Positions 19,641-57,328 of a stretch of 64,000 nucleotides of DNA are shown here, in pieces. The notes beneath the pieces were generated by a model. It saw only the letters and a program-made list of their open reading frames with translations, did not search any database and was not told the origin of the DNA. The number at the start of each line of letters is the position of its first letter. Position 1 is the first letter of the stretch. This DNA comes from Collinsella sp. AF02-46-1. Its GTDB lineage: Bacteria > Actinomycetota > Coriobacteriia > Coriobacteriales > Coriobacteriaceae. Where the stretch lies: NCBI GenBank assembly GCA_934876235.1, contig CAKXKM010000001.1, positions 832 to 64,831 on the forward strand, read 5' to 3'. A program made the translations under genes and the position numbers.

Positions 19641-19858
19641 CAAGGCAATGTCACCAATGACTCCCTACGGATCATTTGACAACCAAGGAAACGCCGATGT
19701 TTTGGCAATGTCAGCGAGCGACGTCCAGAGCGAACAAGTTGGCATGAAAAAGGCAAGGCATAGACCTTCTGGTCATGCCTTGCCTTTTGAATGACAAATT
19801 GTCGCTCTGGGCGGCGCGCAGCGTCGAGCAGTTACGGCGTTTGGTAAAACGCCGTAAC
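19641..19858 (+). repeat. structured repeat family R1, copy B
   Basis: Same conserved core as copy A (GATG at 19696). The copy ends exactly at the prfA stop codon (19859-19861). Confidence 0.8.
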
Positions 19859-20926
19859 TTAAACAGCCTGTGCCAGCTTCTCGGCACGCTCGGCGGCGGC
19901 GAGCGCCTCGATGACGGTGCCGAGCTGGTCGCCCAGGAGGACGCCGTTGTAGGTGGAGTTGAAGCCGATGCGGTGATCGGTCACGCGGTCCTGGGGCTGG
20001 TTGTAGGTACGGATCTTCTCGGAACGGTTGCCGTGGCCGATCTGGCTCTGGCGCTCGGCACCGAGCTCCGCCTGCTGCTTCTCGAGCTCCATCTCGTACA
20101 GACGGGCGCGCAGCATCTGCATGCAGACTTCGCGGTTCTGGATCTGGGAGCGCTGTTCCTGCGACTGCACCACGGTGTTGGTGGGCAGGTGGGTGATGCG
20201 CACGGCAGAATAAGTGGTGTTAACGCACTGACCGCCAGGGCCGGAGGCGCAGTAGGTGTCGATGCGCAGGTCGGACTGGTTGATCTGGACGTCGATTTCC
20301 TCGGCCTCGGGAAGTACGGCGACGGTTGCCGTGGAGGTCTGGATGCGACCCTGGGACTCGGTCTTGGGGACACGCTGGACACGGTGCACGCCGGACTCGA
20401 ACTTCATGACGGAGTAGACGCGGTCGCCCTCGACCTTGAACTCAATGGACTTAAAGCCGCCGGCCTCGCTGGGGCTGGAGTCGAGCACGGTGGTCTTCCA
20501 GCCGCGCGACTCACAGAAGCGCTGATACATCTTGTACAGATCGCCGGCAAAGATGGCCGCCTCGTCGCCACCGGCGGCGGAGCGAATCTCGACGATGGTG
20601 TTCTTGTCGTCGTTGGGGTCGCTCGGGATGAGCATGTACTTAATGTCTTCCTCGAGCTGGGGAAGCTTGGCCTCGTTTTCGGAGATGTCCATCTGGAGCA
20701 TCTCCTTCTCATCGGCATCGGTAGTATCGTGGAGCATTTCCTTGGCAGCCTCGATGTCATCGAGCGCGCCGATGTACTCGCGCGAGGCGGCGATGAGGTC
20801 GGACTGGTGCGCGTACTCCTTGTTGAGACGCGTGAACTCCTTGATGTCGGAGGCAACGGCCGGGTCGGAAAGCTTCTTCTCGAGCTCCTCGTAGGCCTTG
20901 ATAATCTTTTCGAGCTTGTCGCGCAT
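19859..20926 (-). CDS. prfA: peptide chain release factor 1
   Basis: GGQ motif (GPGGQCVNTT) and PxT-type RF1 domain organisation; 355 aa. Confidence 0.95.
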   Translation of the reverse strand: MRDKLEKIIKAYEELEKKLSDPAVASDIKEFTRLNKEYAHQSDLIAASREYIGALDDIEAAKEMLHDTTDADEKEMLQMDISENEAKLPQLEEDIKYMLIPSDPNDDKNTIVEIRSAAGGDEAAIFAGDLYKMYQRFCESRGWKTTVLDSSPSEAGGFKSIEFKVEGDRVYSVMKFESGVHRVQRVPKTESQGRIQTSTATVAVLPEAEEIDVQINQSDLRIDTYCASGPGGQCVNTTYSAVRITHLPTNTVVQSQEQRSQIQNREVCMQMLRARLYEMELEKQQAELGAERQSQIGHGNRSEKIRTYNQPQDRVTDHRIGFNSTYNGVLLGDQLGTVIEALAAAERAEKLAQAV

Positions 20927-21124
20927 GGCGGGACTCCTTTATATGCGTGAAGGTGAAAATCGGCAGAGTTGATGGGGCGCGCGGCGCCACTGTGGGGGTA
21001 AGCCCGGCTAGAACATGTCGATCTTCAGATACATGCGCATCCCTTCGCGTATGGGGTACATAGTTGCGGTCTAACCCATACATGATAGCGTGCGCAGGCA
21101 AACCTGCATATAACCCGCACGGAA

Positions 21125-21153
21125 TGTGACAAAGGGACAGTCCCTTTGTCACA
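21125..21153. repeat. palindromic repeat family R2, short copy (TGTGACAAAGGGAC AG TCCCTTTGTCACA)
   Basis: A perfect 13-bp inverted repeat with a 2-nt spacer, ending 2 nt before the stop of the M20 peptidase gene. The same palindrome recurs at 57271 and, as degenerate variants (GTGACGAAGGAGC-AG-CCCCCTTGTCAC and GTGGCAAAGGGAC-TGTC-TTTTGTTTCAC), at 27829 and 32891. Confidence 0.75.
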
Positions 21154-21155
21154 TC

Positions 21156-25633: not shown

Positions 25634-25815
25634 GGTAGTCATTGGGAGCGTCGATGTTTTGGCAATGCCAGCGAGCGCCGCCCAGAGCGAACAAGTTAGC
25701 ATGAAAAAGGCAAGGCATAGACCTTCTGGTCATGCCTTGCCTTTTGAATGACAAATTGTCGCTCTGGGTGGCGCGCAGCGTCGACCGGTCCGTCGTTCGT
25801 TAGAACGGCGGAACC
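25634..25815 (+). repeat. structured repeat family R1, copy C
   Basis: Same conserved core (GATG at 25653). The 5' end shares GGTAGTCATTGGG with copy A. The copy ends 1 nt before the aldose-epimerase stop codon (25817-25819). Confidence 0.8.
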
Positions 25816-25816
25816 T

Positions 25817-26789: not shown

Positions 26790-27659
26790 TTATTGAGCAA
26801 TAGCGTAAAGGTCAAACCCGCCCTGCGGCGTGCTATCGACCGTATCGGGCGCCTGTGAATTAAAACTCACCGGAACCATGCGCTTTGAGGCACGGTAACG
26901 CGTGCCGTCGGTGGCGACGGGCGGCTCATCGACCGTGAGCTCGTAGTCGCCGGGCTTGAGCTCGATGCCGTCACCTTCGGAATTGACGTATTGGTACTCG
27001 TCGATCGCTTGCCCCTTGAGCGTGCGACCCACGATATGGACGAGCATCTGGCTGTCGCCGCGCGCGGTGTCCCACGTCGCGCCGTCCTTGACCTCGACCG
27101 ATACATGCACCGAGCGCGTGCGGCTGAGCGATTGTTCGACGGACATCTCGACCTTGGCGGCGTCTTTTCGTTGTTGTTCAACATGACTCCAGACGTTTCC
27201 AATTACCGAGCATGCGATAACGCCGGCCATGAAGGCGATGAGGATGGGGCCGAGCGGCGAGCGGCGGCCAGCATCTTCCTCGCGAGCCAAGTCGGGACGA
27301 TGCGTGGGCGCGGGCGCCTGAGCGCCCTGCGAGGGCACGTCGAGAATGCTGAAGGATGCCGTGCTGTCGGGATCGATAGTGTGACGCGGCTGCGGGGTCT
27401 TTGCCGGCGAGATGGACATATCGGCCGGCTCACCGAGCGTGGCTGTGGCATCGGCCTTAGCCTCATCGGCCTCGGCTTGGGCCCAAGCCTGTTCAAAGGT
27501 TAGGGGTTCGGCGGCATCGGAGGCGGCTTCAGGCTCGACACCGGCATCGTTGCCGGTGTCGTCCTCGTCGCTCGACACGTCACACGGCGCGGGCTCGTCC
27601 CACTCTTCGTCCGGAGCCTCGCCCTCGCTATACCACCATTCAAAGTTATCGATATCCAT
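26790..27659 (-). CDS. hypothetical membrane-anchored protein (acidic N-terminal region, one TM helix, C-terminal extracytoplasmic domain)
   Basis: 289-aa ORF with no recognisable family. Called from ORF length and operon-like position only. Confidence 0.4.
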   Translation of the reverse strand: MDIDNFEWWYSEGEAPDEEWDEPAPCDVSSDEDDTGNDAGVEPEAASDAAEPLTFEQAWAQAEADEAKADATATLGEPADMSISPAKTPQPRHTIDPDSTASFSILDVPSQGAQAPAPTHRPDLAREEDAGRRSPLGPILIAFMAGVIACSVIGNVWSHVEQQRKDAAKVEMSVEQSLSRTRSVHVSVEVKDGATWDTARGDSQMLVHIVGRTLKGQAIDEYQYVNSEGDGIELKPGDYELTVDEPPVATDGTRYRASKRMVPVSFNSQAPDTVDSTPQGGFDLYAIAQ

Positions 27660-27744
27660 ACGGGGCGCCCCTTAAGCCTCGCAAATAAACACTTGCCAGC
27701 CTTATACCCCCAGATGGCGCGGGAACTCGCCGGCACAGACAGGA

Positions 27745-27860
27745 AAACCGTCACAACATTCGACGCTTTTCCTCGTTTTCGAGATTTTCGCCGAATGTTG
27801 TGACGGTTTGGGCAGCAGCCACACCGCGAATGTGACGAAGGAGCAGCCCCCTTGTCACAT
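27745..27860. repeat. repeat family R2, composite copy 1 (hairpin CGTCACAACATT-N33-AATGTTGTGACG plus palindrome variant GTGACGAAGGAGC..CCCCCTTGTCAC)
   Basis: Nearly identical to the composite copy at 32824-32922. Its palindrome arm contains the MerR-gene stop codon (27855-27857). Confidence 0.75.
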
Positions 27861-28724
27861 CTGAAGGGCGACGGGGATTTGGATGCAGCAGAAGTCCTCT
27901 TGGTGGGACTCGTCGTAGCTCGTGGTGTCCAAGTAGCAAAAATCGAAAGCGTTGCCGATGGGCTGGAGCGCATGTTTGTCCATGCAGGCGACGATGGCGC
28001 GGATACCTTCGGGCTCGTACGGCATGCCCCAGCGGCTCATGCATAGATACGTGCCCTCGGGCAGCACCTCGACGCCAATCTCTGTCAGCTCGGCAGGATC
28101 GCTCGGCAGCGTTTCCTCGGCACCGCGCGGCAGCACGGCAAAGGAGCCCGCGCCGGCGATAGGGTCGTCGGAATGCAGCGCCTCGCGACGCAGCATGGCA
28201 CCCCAGCCGCGCATGGGACGCGTGCCCGTCAACGCACGCATGCGCAGGATGGCCCGCATGAGCGTGGGGTGAAGCATCGAGCGGCCGCGCTCGATATCGC
28301 CTGGAAACTCCTCAAAGACCACGAAGCGGCGCTCGAACTGCTTGAGCTCCGGCTTGCCCTCGCGCTCGCGCCAGTAAACTGCCTCGTCGTAAAAGCTCAG
28401 ACGCTCCTGCACGCTCGCACGCTCGGCTTTGAGCCCGGCAATCTGCTCGTCGAGCGCCTGCACCCGCGAGCGCAGGTGGTCGGTCATCTCGCTAATGTCG
28501 AACGTCGAGGCTAGGCGGTCGATCTCATCGAGTTCGAGCCCTAGGTCGCGCAGCATGCAGATCAGACGCATGAGCGGGATCTGCGTGGGCGAATAGAAAC
28601 GGTAGCCTTTTTCGTTAACCACGGCGGGCTTAAACAGGCCGATCTTGTCGTAGTAGATGAGCGTTTGGCGCGAAACGTTAAACAAACTCGCCATCTCGCT
28701 AATCGCATACATGCCCGTCTGCAT
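27855..28724 (-). CDS. MerR-family transcriptional regulator with C-terminal effector domain
   Basis: MerR HTH (MYAISEMASLFNVSRQTLIYYDKIGLF) and a C-terminal domain of about 180 aa. Confidence 0.75.
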   Translation of the reverse strand: MQTGMYAISEMASLFNVSRQTLIYYDKIGLFKPAVVNEKGYRFYSPTQIPLMRLICMLRDLGLELDEIDRLASTFDISEMTDHLRSRVQALDEQIAGLKAERASVQERLSFYDEAVYWREREGKPELKQFERRFVVFEEFPGDIERGRSMLHPTLMRAILRMRALTGTRPMRGWGAMLRREALHSDDPIAGAGSFAVLPRGAEETLPSDPAELTEIGVEVLPEGTYLCMSRWGMPYEPEGIRAIVACMDKHALQPIGNAFDFCYLDTTSYDESHQEDFCCIQIPVALQM

Positions 28725-28815
28725 AGATCCTCCCGACACATCCTTTGACGCGAAAAGCCCGCCGCCCACAGGGGCAGCGGGCTCAAACACTCCTCGTATC
28801 CTACCCTAAAGACGC

Positions 28816-29394
28816 CTATGACCAGCGCTTATAGTTTGCACATGACACGCCGACGGCCTCGAGCGCCTTGGCGGCGATGTGATGCACCGCGTCATCGAGC
28901 GTGGCGGGGCCGTTGTAAAACGTGAGCATGGGCGGCATGAGCATGATGCCGGGCACGCGCGCCAGGCGCGCCATGTTATCGACGTGAATGGCGCTGAAGG
29001 GCGTCTCGCGCACCATGAGCACCAGGCGGCGCTGCTCTTTCATCTGCACGTCGGCCGCGCGCAACAACAGGTTTTCGCTGTAGCCGCTCGCAATGCCGGC
29101 GAGCGTCTTCATGGAGCAGGGGGCCACGATCATACCGTCGACCGGATAGGTGCCGCTTGCGATGGCGGCGCCGATGTTCTTGTTGTCGTAGACCGCATCG
29201 GCATAGCACGCAAACTCGTCGAGCGTCATGCCGAGCTCCTGCTCGATGGTGATCTCTCCCCCGCGCGTGACGACAAGCGCCGACTCGGCACCGGCCTGAC
29301 GCAGGCATTTGAGGCACTCAAGGCCCAGCGCGGCACCGCTGGCGCCAGACACGCCAACGACAATGCGACGGGGACGGACAGAAGACTCAGGCAT
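28816..29394 (-). CDS. ubiX: flavin prenyltransferase UbiX (prFMN synthase)
   Basis: Flavoprotein motifs VVGVSGASGAA and MVAPCSMKTLAGIA; 193 aa from Met68 of the track ORF. Upstream sequence of the track ORF overlaps repeat copy D and is not coding. Confidence 0.85.
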   Translation of the reverse strand: MPESSVRPRRIVVGVSGASGAALGLECLKCLRQAGAESALVVTRGGEITIEQELGMTLDEFACYADAVYDNKNIGAAIASGTYPVDGMIVAPCSMKTLAGIASGYSENLLLRAADVQMKEQRRLVLMVRETPFSAIHVDNMARLARVPGIMLMPPMLTFYNGPATLDDAVHHIAAKALEAVGVSCANYKRWS

Positions 29395-29414
29395 GACAAC
29401 TCCTAACAACAAAA

Positions 29415-29584
29415 TGGCAGCTATAGGTCGGGCAATGTCAGCGAGCGCGCGTCTGGCGAGGCAAGGTGCCCCGAAACAAGAAGGCATAGGGCTTATGCCC
29501 ATGCCTTCGCAGTTGAGGGGCAGATTGCCCGCCAGGCGCGGGCGCAGCGTCGAGTGGTCCGGCGTTCGGTAGAACGCCGGAACC
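29415..29584 (+). repeat. structured repeat family R1, copy D
   Basis: Variant core (GGGCAATGTCAGCGAGCG...) with the same helices carrying compensatory substitutions. The copy ends exactly at the ubiD stop codon (29585-29587), between ubiD and ubiX. Confidence 0.75.
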
Positions 29585-31075
29585 TTAGAAAGCAATCTCC
29601 TTGGCCCACTTGTCTGTGTCGATCTCCATGAACTGCGAGCGGATGAAGTTCTTCTTGAGGTCGAACGGGACCGTGCAGTCGAAGATGGCCTTGCAGGCGA
29701 TGCCGTGCTCGCGGATCGTGGGGTCGAACGCGGGGTCGTTGGACGGATCGAGCACGTGGCAGTGGCAACCGGGGATGGTGATGAGGTCCACGTCGGCCTG
29801 GAAGCGCGTGGTCATGGCCCACATCACGTCGCTCATATCGAAGATATCGACATCCTCGTCAACAAGGATGACGTGCTTGAGCTCGGAGAACGCCGAGAAG
29901 GCGAGCATGGCGGCGTTGCGCTGACGGCCCTCGTCATTTTTGCTCGACTTCTTGAACTGCATGATAGCAACGAACTTGCCGCCGCCGCAGGGAGCGGCGT
30001 GGACGTTGAGCAGACGGCCCGGGATGGCGGTCTCGACCATCTTGTAGATGGAGGCCTCGGTGGGGATACCGGCCATGGACACGTGCTCGTGCGAAGGACC
30101 GATGCAGCTCTCCATAATGGGGTTGACGCGCGTGGTAACGGCGGTGATCTTGATCACCGGGCAGACCTTGGCGCCACCGGTGTAACCGGGGAACTCGGGC
30201 ATGGCGTAGCCGTGGCCGTTGACGTCCTCGTTGATGGTCTCGTCGTGCATGAGGTAGCCCTCGAGCACGTACTCGGCATTGGCAATGCACTTCTGCGGAA
30301 CGGTGACGCAGTCGGCAAGCTCGACGGCGTGGCCGCGCAGGGCACCGGCGATCTGCAGCTCGTTGAAGCCGAGCGGCGTGGTGGGAGCCTCGAAGCCGCA
30401 GCACATGTACACGGCGGGGTCCAGACCGATGGAGATGGAGATGGGCATATCCTCGCCACGCTGGCAGTACTCGTCAAAGAACGCGCCCAGGTGACGGCTG
30501 CCGGGGGTAATCCACATGGCGAGCTTGTCCTTGTCGACGCAGGAGAAACGGTGGATGGTCACGTCGGACTGGGAGCCGTCGGGGCTCGTGCCGTAGGCGA
30601 GGCCCATGGTGATGTAGGGGCCGCCGTCGACGGGCGTGTTGGTAGGAGCGGGAACGATCTTGCGCAGGTCAAAGCCCTCGTCGGTCGCCTTGTACACGAC
30701 CTCCTGGCAGTCGACGTGCGCACCCTCGGCGATCTGCTCGGGCGCGATCAGGTTCTCGAAGCGCTTGCCGATCTCGAGGCCCAGGTGCTCCTCGTCCAGG
30801 TCGAGCAGGGCGGCAACGCGCTTGCGGCTGGCAAGCATGCCGATGCAGACCTTGGCATCGTCAAAGCCCTTGACGTTGTTGAAGACCATCGCCGGGCCCT
30901 CTTTGGTCGGGCGCATAACGGTGCCGCCGGCACCGACGTGACGATAGACACCCGAGACCTCGGCGTCCGGGTCGACCTGAGTGTCGGTCTCGAGCAGCTG
31001 GCCCGGCATCTCGCGCAAAAAGTCGAGCGCGGAGCGCAGGTCGTGGATCTGGGAAGCATCGGTAGTGGACATAGC
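29585..31075 (-). CDS. ubiD: UbiD-family prFMN-dependent (de)carboxylase
   Basis: 497 aa from MSTTDASQ with full-length UbiD-family similarity. The track ORF starts at 31150. Confidence 0.85.
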   Translation of the reverse strand, partial: AMSTTDASQIHDLRSALDFLREMPGQLLETDTQVDPDAEVSGVYRHVGAGGTVMRPTKEGPAMVFNNVKGFDDAKVCIGMLASRKRVAALLDLDEEHLGLEIGKRFENLIAPEQIAEGAHVDCQEVVYKATDEGFDLRKIVPAPTNTPVDGGPYITMGLAYGTSPDGSQSDVTIHRFSCVDKDKLAMWITPGSRHLGAFFDEYCQRGEDMPISISIGLDPAVYMCCGFEAPTTPLGFNELQIAGALRGHAVELADCVTVPQKCIANAEYVLEGYLMHDETINEDVNGHGYAMPEFPGYTGGAKVCPVIKITAVTTRVNPIMESCIGPSHEHVSMAGIPTEASIYKMVETAIPGRLLNVHAAPCGGGKFVAIMQFKKSSKNDEGRQRNAAMLAFSAFSELKHVILVDEDVDIFDMSDVMWAMTTRFQADVDLITIPGCHCHVLDPSNDPAFDPTIREHGIACKAIFDCTVPFDLKKNFIRSQFMEIDTDKWAKEIAF

Positions 31076-31214
31076 ATGCTCCTTTCGGGAGAGTGCCCGG
31101 CGGCGAGGATGCCGCCGGGCTGGGTAACGTAGTGGGGCCGCGGCGCTCATAGATGGGACGCTCGGCCACTCGCAGTTCGAGCACTCGGCTGCTTACAGCC
31201 AAGCACTCGACTGC

Positions 31215-32672
31215 TTACATCAGGCCAAAGAGGTGGAACCAGGCGGCCTCGACCAGCACGACGATAAAGACGACCGCGGTGAGGGGAATACCCATGCGCA
31301 TGGCCTCTTTGGAGGTGTAGCCGCCGGCGTCCTTGCCCTCGCCGATAAGGATCGGCAGGTTGTGGAACGGCAGGATGTAGTGGATGTTGATGGACGTGAA
31401 GACGATGAGCGCCACGGCAAGCGGGCTTACGCTGGAGCCGGCCGCGAAGCTGATGAACGCCGGCACGCACACACCGAGCACGGCCATGACCGAGCCCATG
31501 AACATGTGGATGATCATGGAGAGCGCGGCGACGAGCAGGGCGAACAGGAAGATGTTCTCGGGCACGGAGCTGGGAAGCACGACATCGGCGATCCAGGCGT
31601 TCATACCGGTGGCACCGCCCACGGAACCCACGGCCATGGCGGCCGTCAGGAACATGAGGGACTTGATGTCGACGGCGTTCCAGCTGGCGGGGGTGAGGAC
31701 CTCGCCGATGATGGGCATAGCGAGGGCAACGCCGATGGCCAGGGTGACCCAGCCGATGTAATCGCCCGAGACGGTGAGCCACAGCGCGATGGCGATGACA
31801 AGCCACACGATGGTGCGAATCTCCTTGACGGAGAGCTTGTCGAGCGCGGCCTGCTTGGCCACGATCTGCTCGCGATCGTAGACGAGCTCCTTGCTGGGCT
31901 TAAAGAGGAAGAGGCCCAGGAACAGGGTGCACAGCAGCGCGACCAGCATAGGCACGCTCATGTACAGGAACCAGTCGACAAAGGACGGGCTCATGCCGCC
32001 GGCCTCGGCGCTGTACTGCGCAACGAGCGGGTTGAGCGTGGAGTCGCCTGTCAGGAAGAACATGGAGCCGGGGGCAGCAGCGGCAAACACAAGGAAGCCG
32101 AGCTTGCCGCGGTCGTCGTCACCGTAGCCGGCGGACTCGGCGATGACCGAGACAACGGCGAGGATGAGGAAGGCACGGGGGAACGGATGCGGAATGAGTA
32201 GCGACAGCACAAAGGTGAGCGCGAAAATCGAGATGATGAGCGACTTGGCATCGCGCACGAACTTGAGCATGAACGCATAGGCGATACGCTCGCCCAGGCC
32301 CGACTCCTTGACCGCGCTGGCGATGAGGTAGGCACCAATGACGAGCCACATGGTGGCTTTGGTCCACGAGCTAAACGTGGAGGCGACCGTCGCCGAGATG
32401 CTCGCGGCACCCGTGTCGTCCACGCACACCTTGAACAGAACGAGCAGCGCGCAATAGAGCAGGCCCACAAAGCCCGGCTGTGCCACGCCACACGCCCAGA
32501 ACACCACCGTGGCGAGCGTCAACGCCAGACAGGTCTGACCGCCGACCGTAAGCTCGACCGTCGAGCTCAGCTCCGCCAAAGGAAGAAACTTCACCAGCAA
32601 AAAGACAACGATACCCAGCACAAAGCCAATTTCGCGCTTGGTGATCTTAAACGCCTTCTTTTCCGCTTCCAT
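31215..32672 (-). CDS. anion/organic-acid permease of the ion-transporter superfamily (ArsB/NhaD/DASS-like)
   Basis: 485-aa polytopic protein with two repeated hairpin-loop regions. Confidence 0.5.
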   Translation of the reverse strand: MEAEKKAFKITKREIGFVLGIVVFLLVKFLPLAELSSTVELTVGGQTCLALTLATVVFWACGVAQPGFVGLLYCALLVLFKVCVDDTGAASISATVASTFSSWTKATMWLVIGAYLIASAVKESGLGERIAYAFMLKFVRDAKSLIISIFALTFVLSLLIPHPFPRAFLILAVVSVIAESAGYGDDDRGKLGFLVFAAAAPGSMFFLTGDSTLNPLVAQYSAEAGGMSPSFVDWFLYMSVPMLVALLCTLFLGLFLFKPSKELVYDREQIVAKQAALDKLSVKEIRTIVWLVIAIALWLTVSGDYIGWVTLAIGVALAMPIIGEVLTPASWNAVDIKSLMFLTAAMAVGSVGGATGMNAWIADVVLPSSVPENIFLFALLVAALSMIIHMFMGSVMAVLGVCVPAFISFAAGSSVSPLAVALIVFTSINIHYILPFHNLPILIGEGKDAGGYTSKEAMRMGIPLTAVVFIVVLVEAAWFHLFGLM

Positions 32673-32823
32673 CTCCCCACCTTTCTTGTTGGGGGCGCTC
32701 CGGATTCGCGGCCACGTTGCCACTTAAAAAGGGGCGCCCGTTATCGGACACCCCTTACGTTGCGCTGTGTTGTGGCAATACAGTCAAGCGGGATTTTTGG
32801 ATGAGAAGCGATCCTCTGGACAA

Positions 32824-32922
32824 AAAGCGTCACAACATTCGACGCTTTTCCTCGTTTTCGAGATTTTCATCAAATGTTGTGACGGTTTGGATGTGGCAAA
32901 GGGACTGTCTTTTGTTTCACAT
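32824..32922. repeat. repeat family R2, composite copy 2
   Basis: Same hairpin CGTCACAACATT...AATGTTGTGACG followed by palindrome variant ATGTGGCAAAGGGAC..TTTTGTTTCACAT. The palindrome contains the stop codon (32917-32919) of the upstream gene. Confidence 0.75.
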
Positions 32923-34038
32923 AGCGAGATCCGTACGGATGGATGGGTCGCTGAGGGCCTCGCGGAGCCAGGGGGCCAGCTGCTCGGGGCGACCCCGCAG
33001 GTAGCCGTCGAGCTCGGGCGGGGCGACCGGGCGCACCTCCGAGATCTCCTCTTGGTTGATATGCAGCTCGCCCGGCTCAACATGGGCTACGAACACCTCG
33101 CACCATTCGCACTCGCAGCGGCCGTCGCCGTGGTCCTCGCGGTACACCACGTGTCCGAGGTGCTTGAGCTGATCGGGCTCGCGCGTGATGCCAAGCTCTT
33201 CGTTGATGCGACGTGCCGTGGCGGCCGCGACGTCTTCCCCGGGGAGCGGATGGCCGGCACAGCCATCGGCCAGCACCCCGCCCCACAGGCGTTTGAGCGG
33301 ACTGCGACGACAGAGCAGCAGGCGCGCGTCTTCGCCCTGGCCCTCGACCAGAAGCGTCAGAAATGCCTGATGCAGGATTCCCTCGCCGGTATGGGCCTCG
33401 ATGCGGTCGACGGGGCCAAGCGCCTCGCCGGTCGCGGCATCGACCGCCACGACCTCGGCACCCGCGCCGCCCTCATCCCAGCCGGCGCGCAGGATGCGCG
33501 CGGCGGCCTCCTCGAGCGCGGCGATGAGCTCCTTGGTGGTATCGAGCATGCGCTGCAAGTCGTCCGCGGTCGCGTTCTCCACATGAAAACCCGTGCTTGC
33601 GACTACCGGCACGCCAAAGCGCGTGGCCAGCGCCGCCGCGACATCATGCGCCGGAATCTCGTCGCGATGGCACGGAACGGCCAAGATGCTCACGGTCGCC
33701 GTGCGGCCGGGCTCGGGGCGCGGAATGGCCTGCGCCGTGGCGCCCAGATGCGCGTACTCCGGCGAGCAGGCGTACACTGCCATGCCTCGCGGCGTCACCG
33801 TCAGCTGGGCCTCGAGCGCAAACTTGCCCTCGCCCACTGCAACCTTTGTCGTGTGCATACCCATGGGATCTCCTGTCGCCCGCGATGTACCTGAGACCAT
33901 TTTCACCTGTATTGCGACTATACAGGCAAGCGCAGCCTGCGACAAAGGGGGCAGGCACCTGACACATTCTGTTAGAGTTGCAGGGATTGAATCCCGCTTA
34001 TTCATGCGACATTGGAGTGACAACCTTGACCGCCGCAA
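32917..34038 (-). CDS. two-domain protein: N-terminal domain of unknown function (about 190 aa) fused to isopentenyl-diphosphate delta-isomerase type 1 (Idi, Nudix fold)
   Basis: The C-terminal region matches Idi, including the catalytic Cys context CAGHPLPGE, Glu in CEWCEVFVAHVE, and Nudix box GHPLPGEDVAAATARRINEELGI. The true start is probably an internal Met (for example MGMHTT near 33864) because the track ORF overlaps the divergent MFS gene. Confidence 0.65.
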   Translation of the reverse strand: MRRSRLSLQCRMNKRDSIPATLTECVRCLPPLSQAALACIVAIQVKMVSGTSRATGDPMGMHTTKVAVGEGKFALEAQLTVTPRGMAVYACSPEYAHLGATAQAIPRPEPGRTATVSILAVPCHRDEIPAHDVAAALATRFGVPVVASTGFHVENATADDLQRMLDTTKELIAALEEAAARILRAGWDEGGAGAEVVAVDAATGEALGPVDRIEAHTGEGILHQAFLTLLVEGQGEDARLLLCRRSPLKRLWGGVLADGCAGHPLPGEDVAAATARRINEELGITREPDQLKHLGHVVYREDHGDGRCECEWCEVFVAHVEPGELHINQEEISEVRPVAPPELDGYLRGRPEQLAPWLREALSDPSIRTDLAM

Positions 34039-35279
34039 CCACGCCTAAAAGTAAGTCAACCGCCGCCGCGCTCTCCCCCGCGCGCACCAAGCTCTGCCTG
34101 GCGCTGCTCGTGCTGCTGGGATTCTCGCTCGGCTGCTCCGAGTTCGTGGTCATCGGTATCGAGAGCGACTTGGCAACGGAACTCGGCGTATCACTTGCTA
34201 CTGCGGGCCAGCTCATCAGCGTTTTTGCACTGGTCTACGCCATCGCGACGCCGGTGCTTGCGCTCAGCACGGGGCGCTTCCGTCGTTACCAGCTGCTCGT
34301 GTGCTACAGCATCGTCTTTGTGCTCGGCAACCTGGTCATGGCGTTGGCGCCCAACTTCCAGGTGCTCTTTATCTCGCGCATCATCCTGGGTTCCGTCTCG
34401 GGCGCGCTGCTCGCCGTGGGTGTGACGTACATCCCCGAGCTGCTGTCCCCGCAGCAAACTTCGCTTGCCATCTCGGTGGTATATGGTGCGTTTTCCGTGG
34501 CAATGGTCTTTGTCACTTCGATCGGCAAGTTTGTGGCCGACACGCTCGATTGGCACGTGGCCATGTACGGCACGCTTGCCTTTGCCGTTCTGATATGCGG
34601 AGCGCTCGTGATGTTTATGCCGCGCGCCGGACAGACCGACGAGCCCGCCACCTTTCGCGAGCAGGCGGGTCTGCTACGCGAGCCGAGCATCATCACCGGC
34701 ATGCTCATCTTTTTGTTTGGCGTGGGATCGGTCTATGTGTTCTACGGCTACGTGACGCCTTATCTTGAGCAGGTGCTGGGCATGGGCACTGTTCAGGCGA
34801 GCACCACGCTTATGGCCTACGGCGTGTTCTGCCTGATCTCGAACATCCTGGGCGGATGGATCGACGCACGTTTTGGCATGAAGGCACTGCTTGTGACGTT
34901 TGTGCTGCAGGCTGCGGCGTTGCTCGGGCTGTTTGCCGTGGGCGGCACCATGCCGCTCGCGCTGGTCTTTGTCTTTAGCTTGGCGCTGCTCATGTACCTG
35001 TTCTCAGTCTCGTGCATCACACACTTTATGGACGTGGCACGCAGCCGCCATCCCAAATCGATGGTACTCGCGAGCTCGGTAGAACCCATGGCGTTTAACG
35101 TCGGCATCTCGTTTGGCACTGCAGTGGGCGGCGCCGTGGTAAGCGGAGTTGGCATTGCCTGCGTGGGCGCCGTGGGCGCCGCGTTCTCGCTTGTGGCCTG
35201 GATGCTCACGCTGGTGACGATTAAGTTGGCTCGCTGGGAGCGCCGTCGTCAATCAGCACAGCCCCGGATGCAGGCATAG
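33978..35279 (+). CDS. MFS transporter
   Basis: 12-TM MFS architecture with motif GRFRRYQLL (loop 2-3). The start is uncertain because of overlap with the divergent gene. Confidence 0.75.
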   Translation: MQGLNPAYSCDIGVTTLTAATTPKSKSTAAALSPARTKLCLALLVLLGFSLGCSEFVVIGIESDLATELGVSLATAGQLISVFALVYAIATPVLALSTGRFRRYQLLVCYSIVFVLGNLVMALAPNFQVLFISRIILGSVSGALLAVGVTYIPELLSPQQTSLAISVVYGAFSVAMVFVTSIGKFVADTLDWHVAMYGTLAFAVLICGALVMFMPRAGQTDEPATFREQAGLLREPSIITGMLIFLFGVGSVYVFYGYVTPYLEQVLGMGTVQASTTLMAYGVFCLISNILGGWIDARFGMKALLVTFVLQAAALLGLFAVGGTMPLALVFVFSLALLMYLFSVSCITHFMDVARSRHPKSMVLASSVEPMAFNVGISFGTAVGGAVVSGVGIACVGAVGAAFSLVAWMLTLVTIKLARWERRRQSAQPRMQA

Positions 35280-57260: not shown

Positions 57261-57270
57261 TTTTACCGAT

Positions 57271-57297
57271 GCGACAAAGGGACAGTCCCTTTGTCGC
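57271..57297. repeat. palindromic repeat family R2, short copy (GCGACAAAGGGAC AG TCCCTTTGTCGC)
   Basis: Same 13-2-13 palindrome as at 21125, located 10 nt after the MFS stop codon. Confidence 0.7.
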
Positions 57298-57328
57298 ATT
57301 CCACCGCCACCAGTATTAAGGAGTCGAA

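Follow-up and report, generated by a model that had tools for sequence, protein, structure and literature searches.

The closest described system is the gallate system of L. plantarum, made up of LpdC (a UbiD), LpdB (a UbiX), and LpdD, a chaperone that binds the reduced form of prenylated flavin mononucleotide (prFMNH2) and aids UbiD activation, with a metal site formed by His35, His61, and Asp63 (PMC10865409). The lpdD gene stands free (about 130 aa) and adjoins lpdB, with lpdC located elsewhere. The same three functions, including a homologous LpdD with the His/His/Asp site and a UbiD of the AroY/LpdC type, are predicted for a minus-strand locus of Collinsella sp. AF02-46-1, lying in a 64,000-nt stretch of contig CAKXKM010000001.1 (the whole stretch is called the window below). 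Compared with L. plantarum, the Collinsella LpdD is fused to a domain resembling isopentenyl-diphosphate Delta-isomerase (IDI), and the fusion gene forms its own transcription unit beside the operon; the permease is of the DASS type and the regulator of the MerR type. The LpdD-IDI arrangement is new as a variant, while the underlying UbiD/UbiX/LpdD decarboxylase system is already known.

Other described proteins and loci resemble parts of this one. The Collinsella UbiD is similar over its full length to the AroY proteins of K. pneumoniae and Enterobacter cloacae (5O3M, 5NY5), for which prFMN likewise comes from a UbiX partner; the accessory proteins differ from those of the AroY systems, and the substrate of the Collinsella enzyme is predicted by sequence. 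The IDI-like domain has the fold of E. coli Idi (1NFS/1HX3; template modeling [TM] score 0.82) and equivalents of its metal and diphosphate residues and of Glu116, Tyr104, and Trp161, but it has Ala at the position of Cys67 and a Cys one residue earlier, is fused to LpdD, and scores under the family cut-offs. The UbiX finds its best match in that of E. coli O157:H7 (EcdB/Pad1, 1SBZ), with which it has in common a His at the position of the β-phosphate of dimethylallyl diphosphate (DMAPP). The prFMN maturases PhdC and YclD (PMC13040415) are also accessory proteins, encoded with UbiD and UbiX, that help UbiD activation, but they differ from the LpdD fusion in having an unrelated fold and in acting by oxidation of a prFMN radical; no homolog of either was seen in this locus. 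Finally, deletion-prone loci with terminator repeats or repeats like repetitive extragenic palindromic (REP) elements likewise have short direct repeats bounding a variable block at a fixed site; by comparison, the Collinsella block is without a recombinase, and its R2 repeat (below) is nearly confined to this locus.

The evidence points to a locus of the accessory genome in Collinsella (aerofaciens group) whose products would decarboxylate a hydroxy-aromatic acid non-oxidatively, with protocatechuate or gallate the most likely substrate. Its identity as an aromatic-acid decarboxylase system of the AroY/LpdC-UbiX-LpdD type is well supported by sequence comparison. The fuller explanation favored here, in which the fusion protein of this decarboxylase locus serves both the input and the output of UbiX and the repeats act as recombination sites, seems probable, with room for doubt about its parts.

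The LpdD-type domain and its decarboxylase partners

Open reading frame (ORF) calls and family profile scans give the minus-strand order fusion, DASS permease, UbiD, R1 repeat copy, UbiX, MerR regulator, as the initial annotation of this DNA had it. The fusion gene (32917-33864, minus strand; 315 aa) starts with MGMH at 33864, in agreement with 100+ homologs; with this start the N-terminal domain, previously described as an unknown domain of about 190 aa, has a length of about 130 aa. It (aa ~1-130, nt 33475-33864, minus strand) matches Pfam PF21758, labeled LpdD_chaperone in precomputed annotation tables, at 67.7 bits (E 8.7e-19; gathering score 27), and is joined to the IDI-like domain by a long linker helix. 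As a single sequence the N-terminal domain had no match in the PDB and a profile was required: one made from it and 54 free-standing homologs matches the LpdD structures 8PO5, 8PZH, and 8P4W (E 5e-16 to 1e-15). In the profile-to-PDB alignment, LpdD His35, His61, and Asp63 fall on H39, H66, and D68 of the fusion, a metal triad that is invariant across 24 fusion homologs of 53-91% identity. A Foldseek search with the full-length fusion model returned only IDI/Nudix matches in its top 50, leaving the LpdD fold without structural confirmation. By its profile matches, the domain is classed as an LpdD-family prFMNH2 chaperone, a membership that contradicts its earlier candidacy as a DMAPP phosphatase or prenyl-phosphate-handling module.

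The UbiD-family decarboxylase of the AroY/LpdC type (29585-31072, minus strand; 495 aa) has three UbiD Pfam domains; along its entire length it aligns with AroY, the protocatechuate decarboxylase of K. pneumoniae (5O3M; E 3e-166, 557 bits). Against NCBIfam VdcC it scores 437 bits, under the cut-off of 650, and is therefore outside the VdcC exception-level family. An isoprenoid phosphate had been raised as a possible substrate in place of an aromatic acid; the strength of the AroY match makes this unlikely, and the idea was dropped.

The UbiX flavin prenyltransferase (28816-29394, minus strand; 192 aa) exceeds the curated cut-offs of NF004685 (211.6 vs. 188) and TIGR00421 (209 vs. 109), and its best PDB match is 1SBZ, the E. 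coli O157 UbiX (E 8e-47). Known prenyl donors are dimethylallyl phosphate (DMAP) for P. aeruginosa UbiX (PaUbiX), DMAPP for the A. niger and E. coli K12 enzymes, and both for O157 UbiX, in which His164, at the position of Phe181 in PaUbiX, is placed for binding of the DMAPP β-phosphate (Marshall et al., PMC6541611). The window UbiX has a His (in VHHIA) where PaUbiX has F181 and O157 UbiX has H164, and by this residue looks able to use DMAPP. The statement that UbiX needs DMAP was therefore too strict: some UbiX proteins use DMAPP, and the one encoded here has the residue that would accommodate the β-phosphate.

The fusion adjoins UbiD and UbiX in five gene arrangements across the Coriobacteriaceae: those of the window, of C. 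glomerans, and of three divergent Collinsella-type contigs. The C. glomerans order, fusion-UbiD-DUF554-UbiX-MerR-aldose epimerase, is syntenic with the window, while in Collinsella sp. AGMB00827, Collinsella sp. An2, and a distant contig (41% identity) it is LysR-UbiD (VdcC type)-EcdD-DASS-UbiX-(second, AroY-type UbiD)-fusion. The UbiD partners are either AroY-type or VdcC/VdcCD-type, and company with two UbiD subfamilies is what would be expected of a protein concerned with the cofactor and not with the substrate. The fusion is also lost along with the rest of the block in 33 genomes (below). A functional tie of the fusion to UbiX/UbiD cofactor maturation, as first proposed from the window alone, is supported by this adjacency and joint loss.

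When the LpdD-type N-terminal domain was searched exhaustively against 1.84 billion representative proteins, 290 clusters were obtained at E <= 0.001. Most of the best 150 of these 290 stand free, with a length of about 130 aa; the longer members among the same 150 are few, and consist of further LpdD-IDI fusions and two riboflavin kinase-LpdD fusions. Suppliers of both UbiX substrates, DMAPP and FMN, would on this evidence have been fused to LpdD independently. A distant LpdD-IDI fusion, P0167, has the canonical ACCSHP motif and scores above both NCBIfam IDI cut-offs. The two CTP-dependent riboflavin kinase-LpdD fusions (P0206, at L128 233-1090, and P0256, at L125 178-1044) come from uncharacterized metagenome contigs, and the P0206 gene is followed by one for an ECF-transporter S component. 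These three and P0180 are all on short contigs, with uninformative gene contexts. Literature searches on LpdD fusions, Collinsella UbiD, and Nudix/DMAP/UbiX turned up no mention of LpdD-IDI or riboflavin kinase-LpdD fusions.

The locus comprises two transcription units, DASS-UbiD-UbiX-MerR and the fusion alone, each with the same promoter motif and each ending in a stop-overlapping palindrome and an R2 hairpin. The MerR-type promoter-like site of the fusion (33899-33929, minus strand) reads TTGCCT-19 nt-GAAAAT, with a dyad CTGTAT-N7-ATACAG at 33907-33925; that of the DASS gene (32757-32787, minus strand) reads TTGACT-19 nt-CAACGT, with its dyad at 32765-32783. Their consensus is TTG(A/C)CT-19 nt-NANNNT, with the inner dyad CTGTAT-N7-A(T/C)ACAG. 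A 19-bp spacer with an internal dyad is a hallmark of MerR-family promoters. Across 52-53 related Collinsella loci the motif varies little or not at all, and it is found again in C. glomerans, upstream of both the fusion and UbiD, for four promoters in two genera. From this pattern we infer a promoter/operator role for the two sites and induction of both transcription units by MerR; the locus is probably regulated by its own MerR-family protein. Between the DASS promoter-like site and the DASS ribosome-binding site is a GC-rich leader hairpin followed by U5 (32726-32754, minus strand); the hairpin is kept across 53 loci, where a single U.G pair has changed to C-G, and may be an attenuator.

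The IDI-like domain and a possible division of labor

The C-terminal part of the fusion (aa ~138-315, nt 32920-33453, minus strand) is a type-1 IDI-like Nudix domain (Pfam NUDIX, 55.3 bits) with similarity to the E. coli and Salmonella IDI proteins (E ~1e-14). An AlphaFold (AF2) model of the whole fusion (predicted local distance difference test score 89, predicted TM score 0.75) is matched by Foldseek to E. coli IDI 1NFS/1HX3 (E 5e-14, target TM 0.82). In E. coli numbering, the metal ligands H25, H32, H69, E114, and E116 are all kept, as are the diphosphate/Mg residues R51, K55, E87, and K21 (as Arg), together with Y104 and W161. The catalytic and ligand roles of the E. coli residues, including Cys67 and Glu116, are here taken to be those generally established.

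In the mechanism proposed here, the IDI-like domain would raise the local supply of DMAPP from isopentenyl diphosphate (IPP); UbiX would take this DMAPP by way of its His, as in its closest characterized relative; and the LpdD domain would accept the oxygen-sensitive prFMNH2 from UbiX and pass it to the decarboxylase. With supply by one domain and hand-over by the other, the fusion would serve UbiX at the entry of substrate as well as at the exit of product. The palindromes and R2 hairpins would stand outside the enzymology, and would provide short stretches of homology for deletion or exchange of the locus. The initial annotation had foreseen a self-contained cofactor-maturation module in a cassette-like block; this was broadly right, and its guesses at a phosphatase and an isoprenoid-phosphate substrate were not.

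To our knowledge, no prFMNH2 chaperone other than LpdD has been described. Many UbiD decarboxylases are hard to activate in a foreign host, and their needs beyond UbiX are an open question (PMC10865409). A natural fusion of a predicted prFMNH2 chaperone with an IPP/DMAPP-handling domain bears on UbiD activation, and might serve as a ready-made co-expression part. The LpdD-IDI and riboflavin kinase fusions together suggest that cells couple precursor supply to cofactor hand-over. The locus is in addition a strain-variable trait in a common human gut genus, and probably decides which Collinsella strains decarboxylate dietary hydroxybenzoates.

Several points argue against this explanation. The -10 hexamers of the two promoter-like sites are weak, and the sites are absent from the output of a generic promoter scan. 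The IDI-like domain misses both NCBIfam IDI cut-offs (NF002995, 123.9 vs. 127; TIGR02150, 71.1 vs. 105.8), so that isomerase activity is not assured. The position of Cys67 is Ala203 in the window and Ser in 2 of 24 family members; the C67A IDI structure entries 1OW2 and 1Q54, which were among the PDB matches, bear on the role of this residue. Moreover, a cofactor needed in stoichiometric amounts demands only little DMAPP.

One alternative, then, is that the IDI-like domain is not an isomerase, and is either a Nudix diphosphatase converting DMAPP to DMAP or a non-catalytic binder of DMAPP/IPP that hands the donor to UbiX. The scores under both IDI equivalog cut-offs and the Ala or Ser at the Cys67 position in all 24 family members would fit this, as would a nearly complete Nudix box (G-x5-E-x7-RR-U-x-EE-x-G) with both Glu invariant and a weak resemblance to the YfcD Nudix hydrolase. 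It is nonetheless judged unlikely. The equivalents of H25, H32, H69, E114, E116, Y104, W161, R/K21, R51, and K55 are all invariant, and so is Cys202, one residue before the Cys67-aligned position in a loop without an indel; this invariant neighbor suggests that the catalytic thiol has been displaced rather than lost. The related fusion P0167 has the canonical CC motif, and DMAP may be unneeded where UbiX looks DMAPP-capable. With its displaced Cys, the IDI-like domain is a candidate for the origin of the UbiX prenyl donor.

A more speculative possibility, which seems rather less likely still, is that the LpdD domain is the hub of a prFMN “synthasome,” fused to a supplier of either UbiX substrate, and that the Coriobacteriaceae IDI-like domain has changed its chemistry, to conversion of DMAPP to DMAP or to hand-over of DMAPP to UbiX. 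If this were true, it would reveal a biological source dedicated to the prenyl donor of UbiX. That the fusion is a housekeeping IDI with an extra domain and only incidentally beside UbiD and UbiX, as might be supposed from the names of its homologs at NCBI (isopentenyl-diphosphate Delta-isomerase, besides NUDIX hydrolase and hypothetical protein), is very improbable: it is missing from the locus in the 33 genomes that also lack UbiD and UbiX there, its adjacency is kept despite reshuffled gene order and differing UbiD subfamilies, its partner domain belongs to a prFMN chaperone family, and its promoter motif is that of the decarboxylase operon.

Repeats and alleles of the block

Two near-identical R2 elements flank the 5-kb block, as initially described. 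R2 copy 1 (27744-27811, minus strand), at its right endpoint, occupies the interval between MerR and a 289-aa gene, as in 19 related loci; R2 copy 2 (32823-32890, minus strand), at its left endpoint, occupies the fusion/DASS interval, as in 54 related loci. The pair is 68 nt long and 94% identical, with an identical 41-nt core, and 0 such pairs are expected in shuffles. Both copies have the hairpin CGTCACAACATT-N33-AATGTTGTGACG; as RNA of the coding strand this becomes a stem of 17-21 bp that encloses a smaller hairpin, and a U-run follows (z = -7.4 and -5.1). Both are terminator-like, and copy 2 is probably the terminator of the fusion gene. Integron attC-like cores (RYYYAAC/GTTRRRY) were sought in R2 and were missing on inspection.

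Palindromes, to which no strand is assigned, accompany these elements. Palindrome 1 (33938-33967), a degenerate version of the repeat ATGTGAC...GTCACAT, lies upstream of the fusion promoter and forms the left junction of the empty-site allele described below. Palindrome 2 (32891-32922), also degenerate, holds the last codon and stop of the fusion, and palindrome 3 (27830-27860), separated from R2 copy 1 by an 18-nt spacer (27812-27829), holds those of MerR: in both (about 31 nt) the left arm ATGTGA reads ATG-TGA, the last codon and stop, so that each R2-side palindrome does include the stop codon of its adjacent gene. The TGTGAC..GTCACA form attributed to both is present beside R2 copy 1; beside copy 2 it is degenerate, TGTGAA...GCCACA. 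Exact matches to it in the window are limited to 27831-27859 and an unrelated site at 21125. A CRP-type site (TGTGA-N6-TCACA) was considered for the palindrome and rejected, since the spacing is wrong. Near-perfect copies of the 31-nt palindrome ATGTGACAAAGGGACAGTCCCTTTGTCACAT are found at 21124-21154 and 57269-57299, at unrelated gene ends. In this genome the palindrome would seem to be a scattered repeat, of the REP-like or terminator kind.

R2 has another distribution. An exact scan for the R2 arms, with one genome per species, gave at least 119 tiles. Nearly all of the matches listed are in assemblies labeled Collinsella or Coriobacteriaceae, and 118 of the 119 listed are at this locus; they do not lie at random gene ends across the genome, a distribution under which the flanking of the block would be coincidental. 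The sole off-locus case among the matches listed is an R2-like hairpin upstream of gatCAB-like genes in C. aerofaciens CC01028 (L108 7880-7994), preceded by short tandem CACAACGAAAACC units. Rfam had no match for R2, for R1, or for the DASS leader, either in the whole window at the gathering threshold or in 27500-34200 at E <= 1.

Among 114 Collinsella genomes, the block is present in 65 and the site is empty in 33; two have the fusion only, and 14 are unclassifiable. The block is always found between the same MFS gene and the 289-aa gene. At the empty site these two genes are linked by a single palindrome, spacer, and R2, with the left flank taken from palindrome 1 (CTCTAACAGA) and the right from palindrome 3. 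In the fusion-only allele, the fusion, its palindrome, and R2 are followed directly by the 289-aa gene, the left flank being that of R2 copy 2 and the right that of R2 copy 1; one of the two genomes of this kind (L095 6256-6900) has an in-frame deletion of most of the LpdD domain. Recombination between palindromes 1 and 3 would produce the empty site, and recombination between the two R2 copies the fusion-only allele. Some block-bearing genomes have another hairpin instead of R2 on the MerR side. Four loci (L016, L032, L066, and L120) have an alternative 3′ end of the block, in which MerR ends ...LK (TAA) and is followed by the hairpin CTTGCGGTGAAATAGTCCC...GGAACTATTCCACCGCAA and a palindrome, with no R2.

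The block had been called cassette-like. This holds for its presence/absence alleles with junctions inside repeats; it does not extend to mobility, as neither the block nor the DNA beside it has an integrase, transposase, or recombinase (all block ORFs are assigned otherwise) and the position of the block is syntenic with C. glomerans. Of the features of a mobile cassette, flanking direct repeats and repeat-bounded alleles are found, and a mobility gene and multiple chromosomal sites are not. By these comparisons the block is a recombination-prone accessory locus rather than a mobile element, and the C. glomerans synteny indicates that its presence is ancestral. The favored account is that the empty alleles are deletions by recombination between short repeats, later exchanged as alleles between strains; loss is favored over gain on four grounds, namely the lack of a recombinase, the constant site, the synteny with C. 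glomerans, and the presence of an orphan R2 in the empty sites.

The opposite history is possible, if doubtful: the 5-kb block might have been acquired by recombination, homologous (Campbell-type) or site-specific, into a palindrome-R2 site already in place, duplicating R2, with the empty site ancestral in Collinsella. Direct repeats do flank the block, and the empty and fusion-only alleles hold a single intact R2. Locus states are interspersed on a tree of the flanking gene, the nearest neighbor having the same state in only 32 of 52 cases, a patchy presence that favors acquisition; the C. glomerans locus, too, has no DASS gene. Set against acquisition are the lack of a mobility gene (integrase, transposase, or recombinase) within the block or adjoining it, its constant chromosomal site, and the C. 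glomerans fusion-UbiD-UbiX-MerR cluster beside the same aldose epimerase gene. In the empty sites, R2 is a terminator-like orphan placed in a region of divergent promoters, more easily seen as a remnant, and some block-bearing genomes have no R2 on the MerR side.

It is improbable that the R2 copies are just two similar terminators, flanking the block by coincidence and without a part in the polymorphism. Both are indeed hairpins with a U-run at the ends of transcription units, an R2-like copy exists at the unrelated L108 locus, and the palindrome is dispersed across the genome. However, the single R2 of the fusion-only alleles has the left flank of copy 2 on one side and the right flank of copy 1 on the other, the empty alleles combine palindrome 1's left flank with palindrome 3's right flank, and loop variants are common to both R2 copies across genomes.

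Permease, regulator, and spacer elements

The DASS/SLC13-family anion permease (31215-32672, minus strand; 485 aa, starting MEAEKK) matches Pfam Na_sulph_symp (E 7e-33) and scores 130 bits against TIGR00785, under the family cut-off. Homologs with 49-50% identity are found inside the UbiD operons of three other contigs (L002, L003, and L126). The MerR-family regulator (27855-28790, minus strand) has the Pfam domains MerR_1, MerR, and MerR-DNA-bind and a C-terminal domain of about 180 aa, and is 55% identical to the MerR in the same position in C. glomerans; its start is likely to be the ATG at 28724 rather than 28790.

The spacer between UbiD and UbiX is filled by a copy of R1 (29405-29585, no strand assigned; family D1/D3). 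Four related loci have a spacer of 193 nt and 40 have one of 36-40 nt, by which the R1 copy is taken to be a polymorphic insertion. R1 measures about 175 nt and contains several hairpins; its copies, at 19687-19859, 25644-25816, and ~29405-29585, each adjoin or run into the stop codon of a gene on the minus strand, and the element looks like a miniature inverted-repeat transposable element (MITE). The DASS-UbiD spacer (31073-31214) includes GTAAGCAG(T/C)CGAGTGCT in two tandem copies, and its length differs among related loci, from about 68 to 112 nt.

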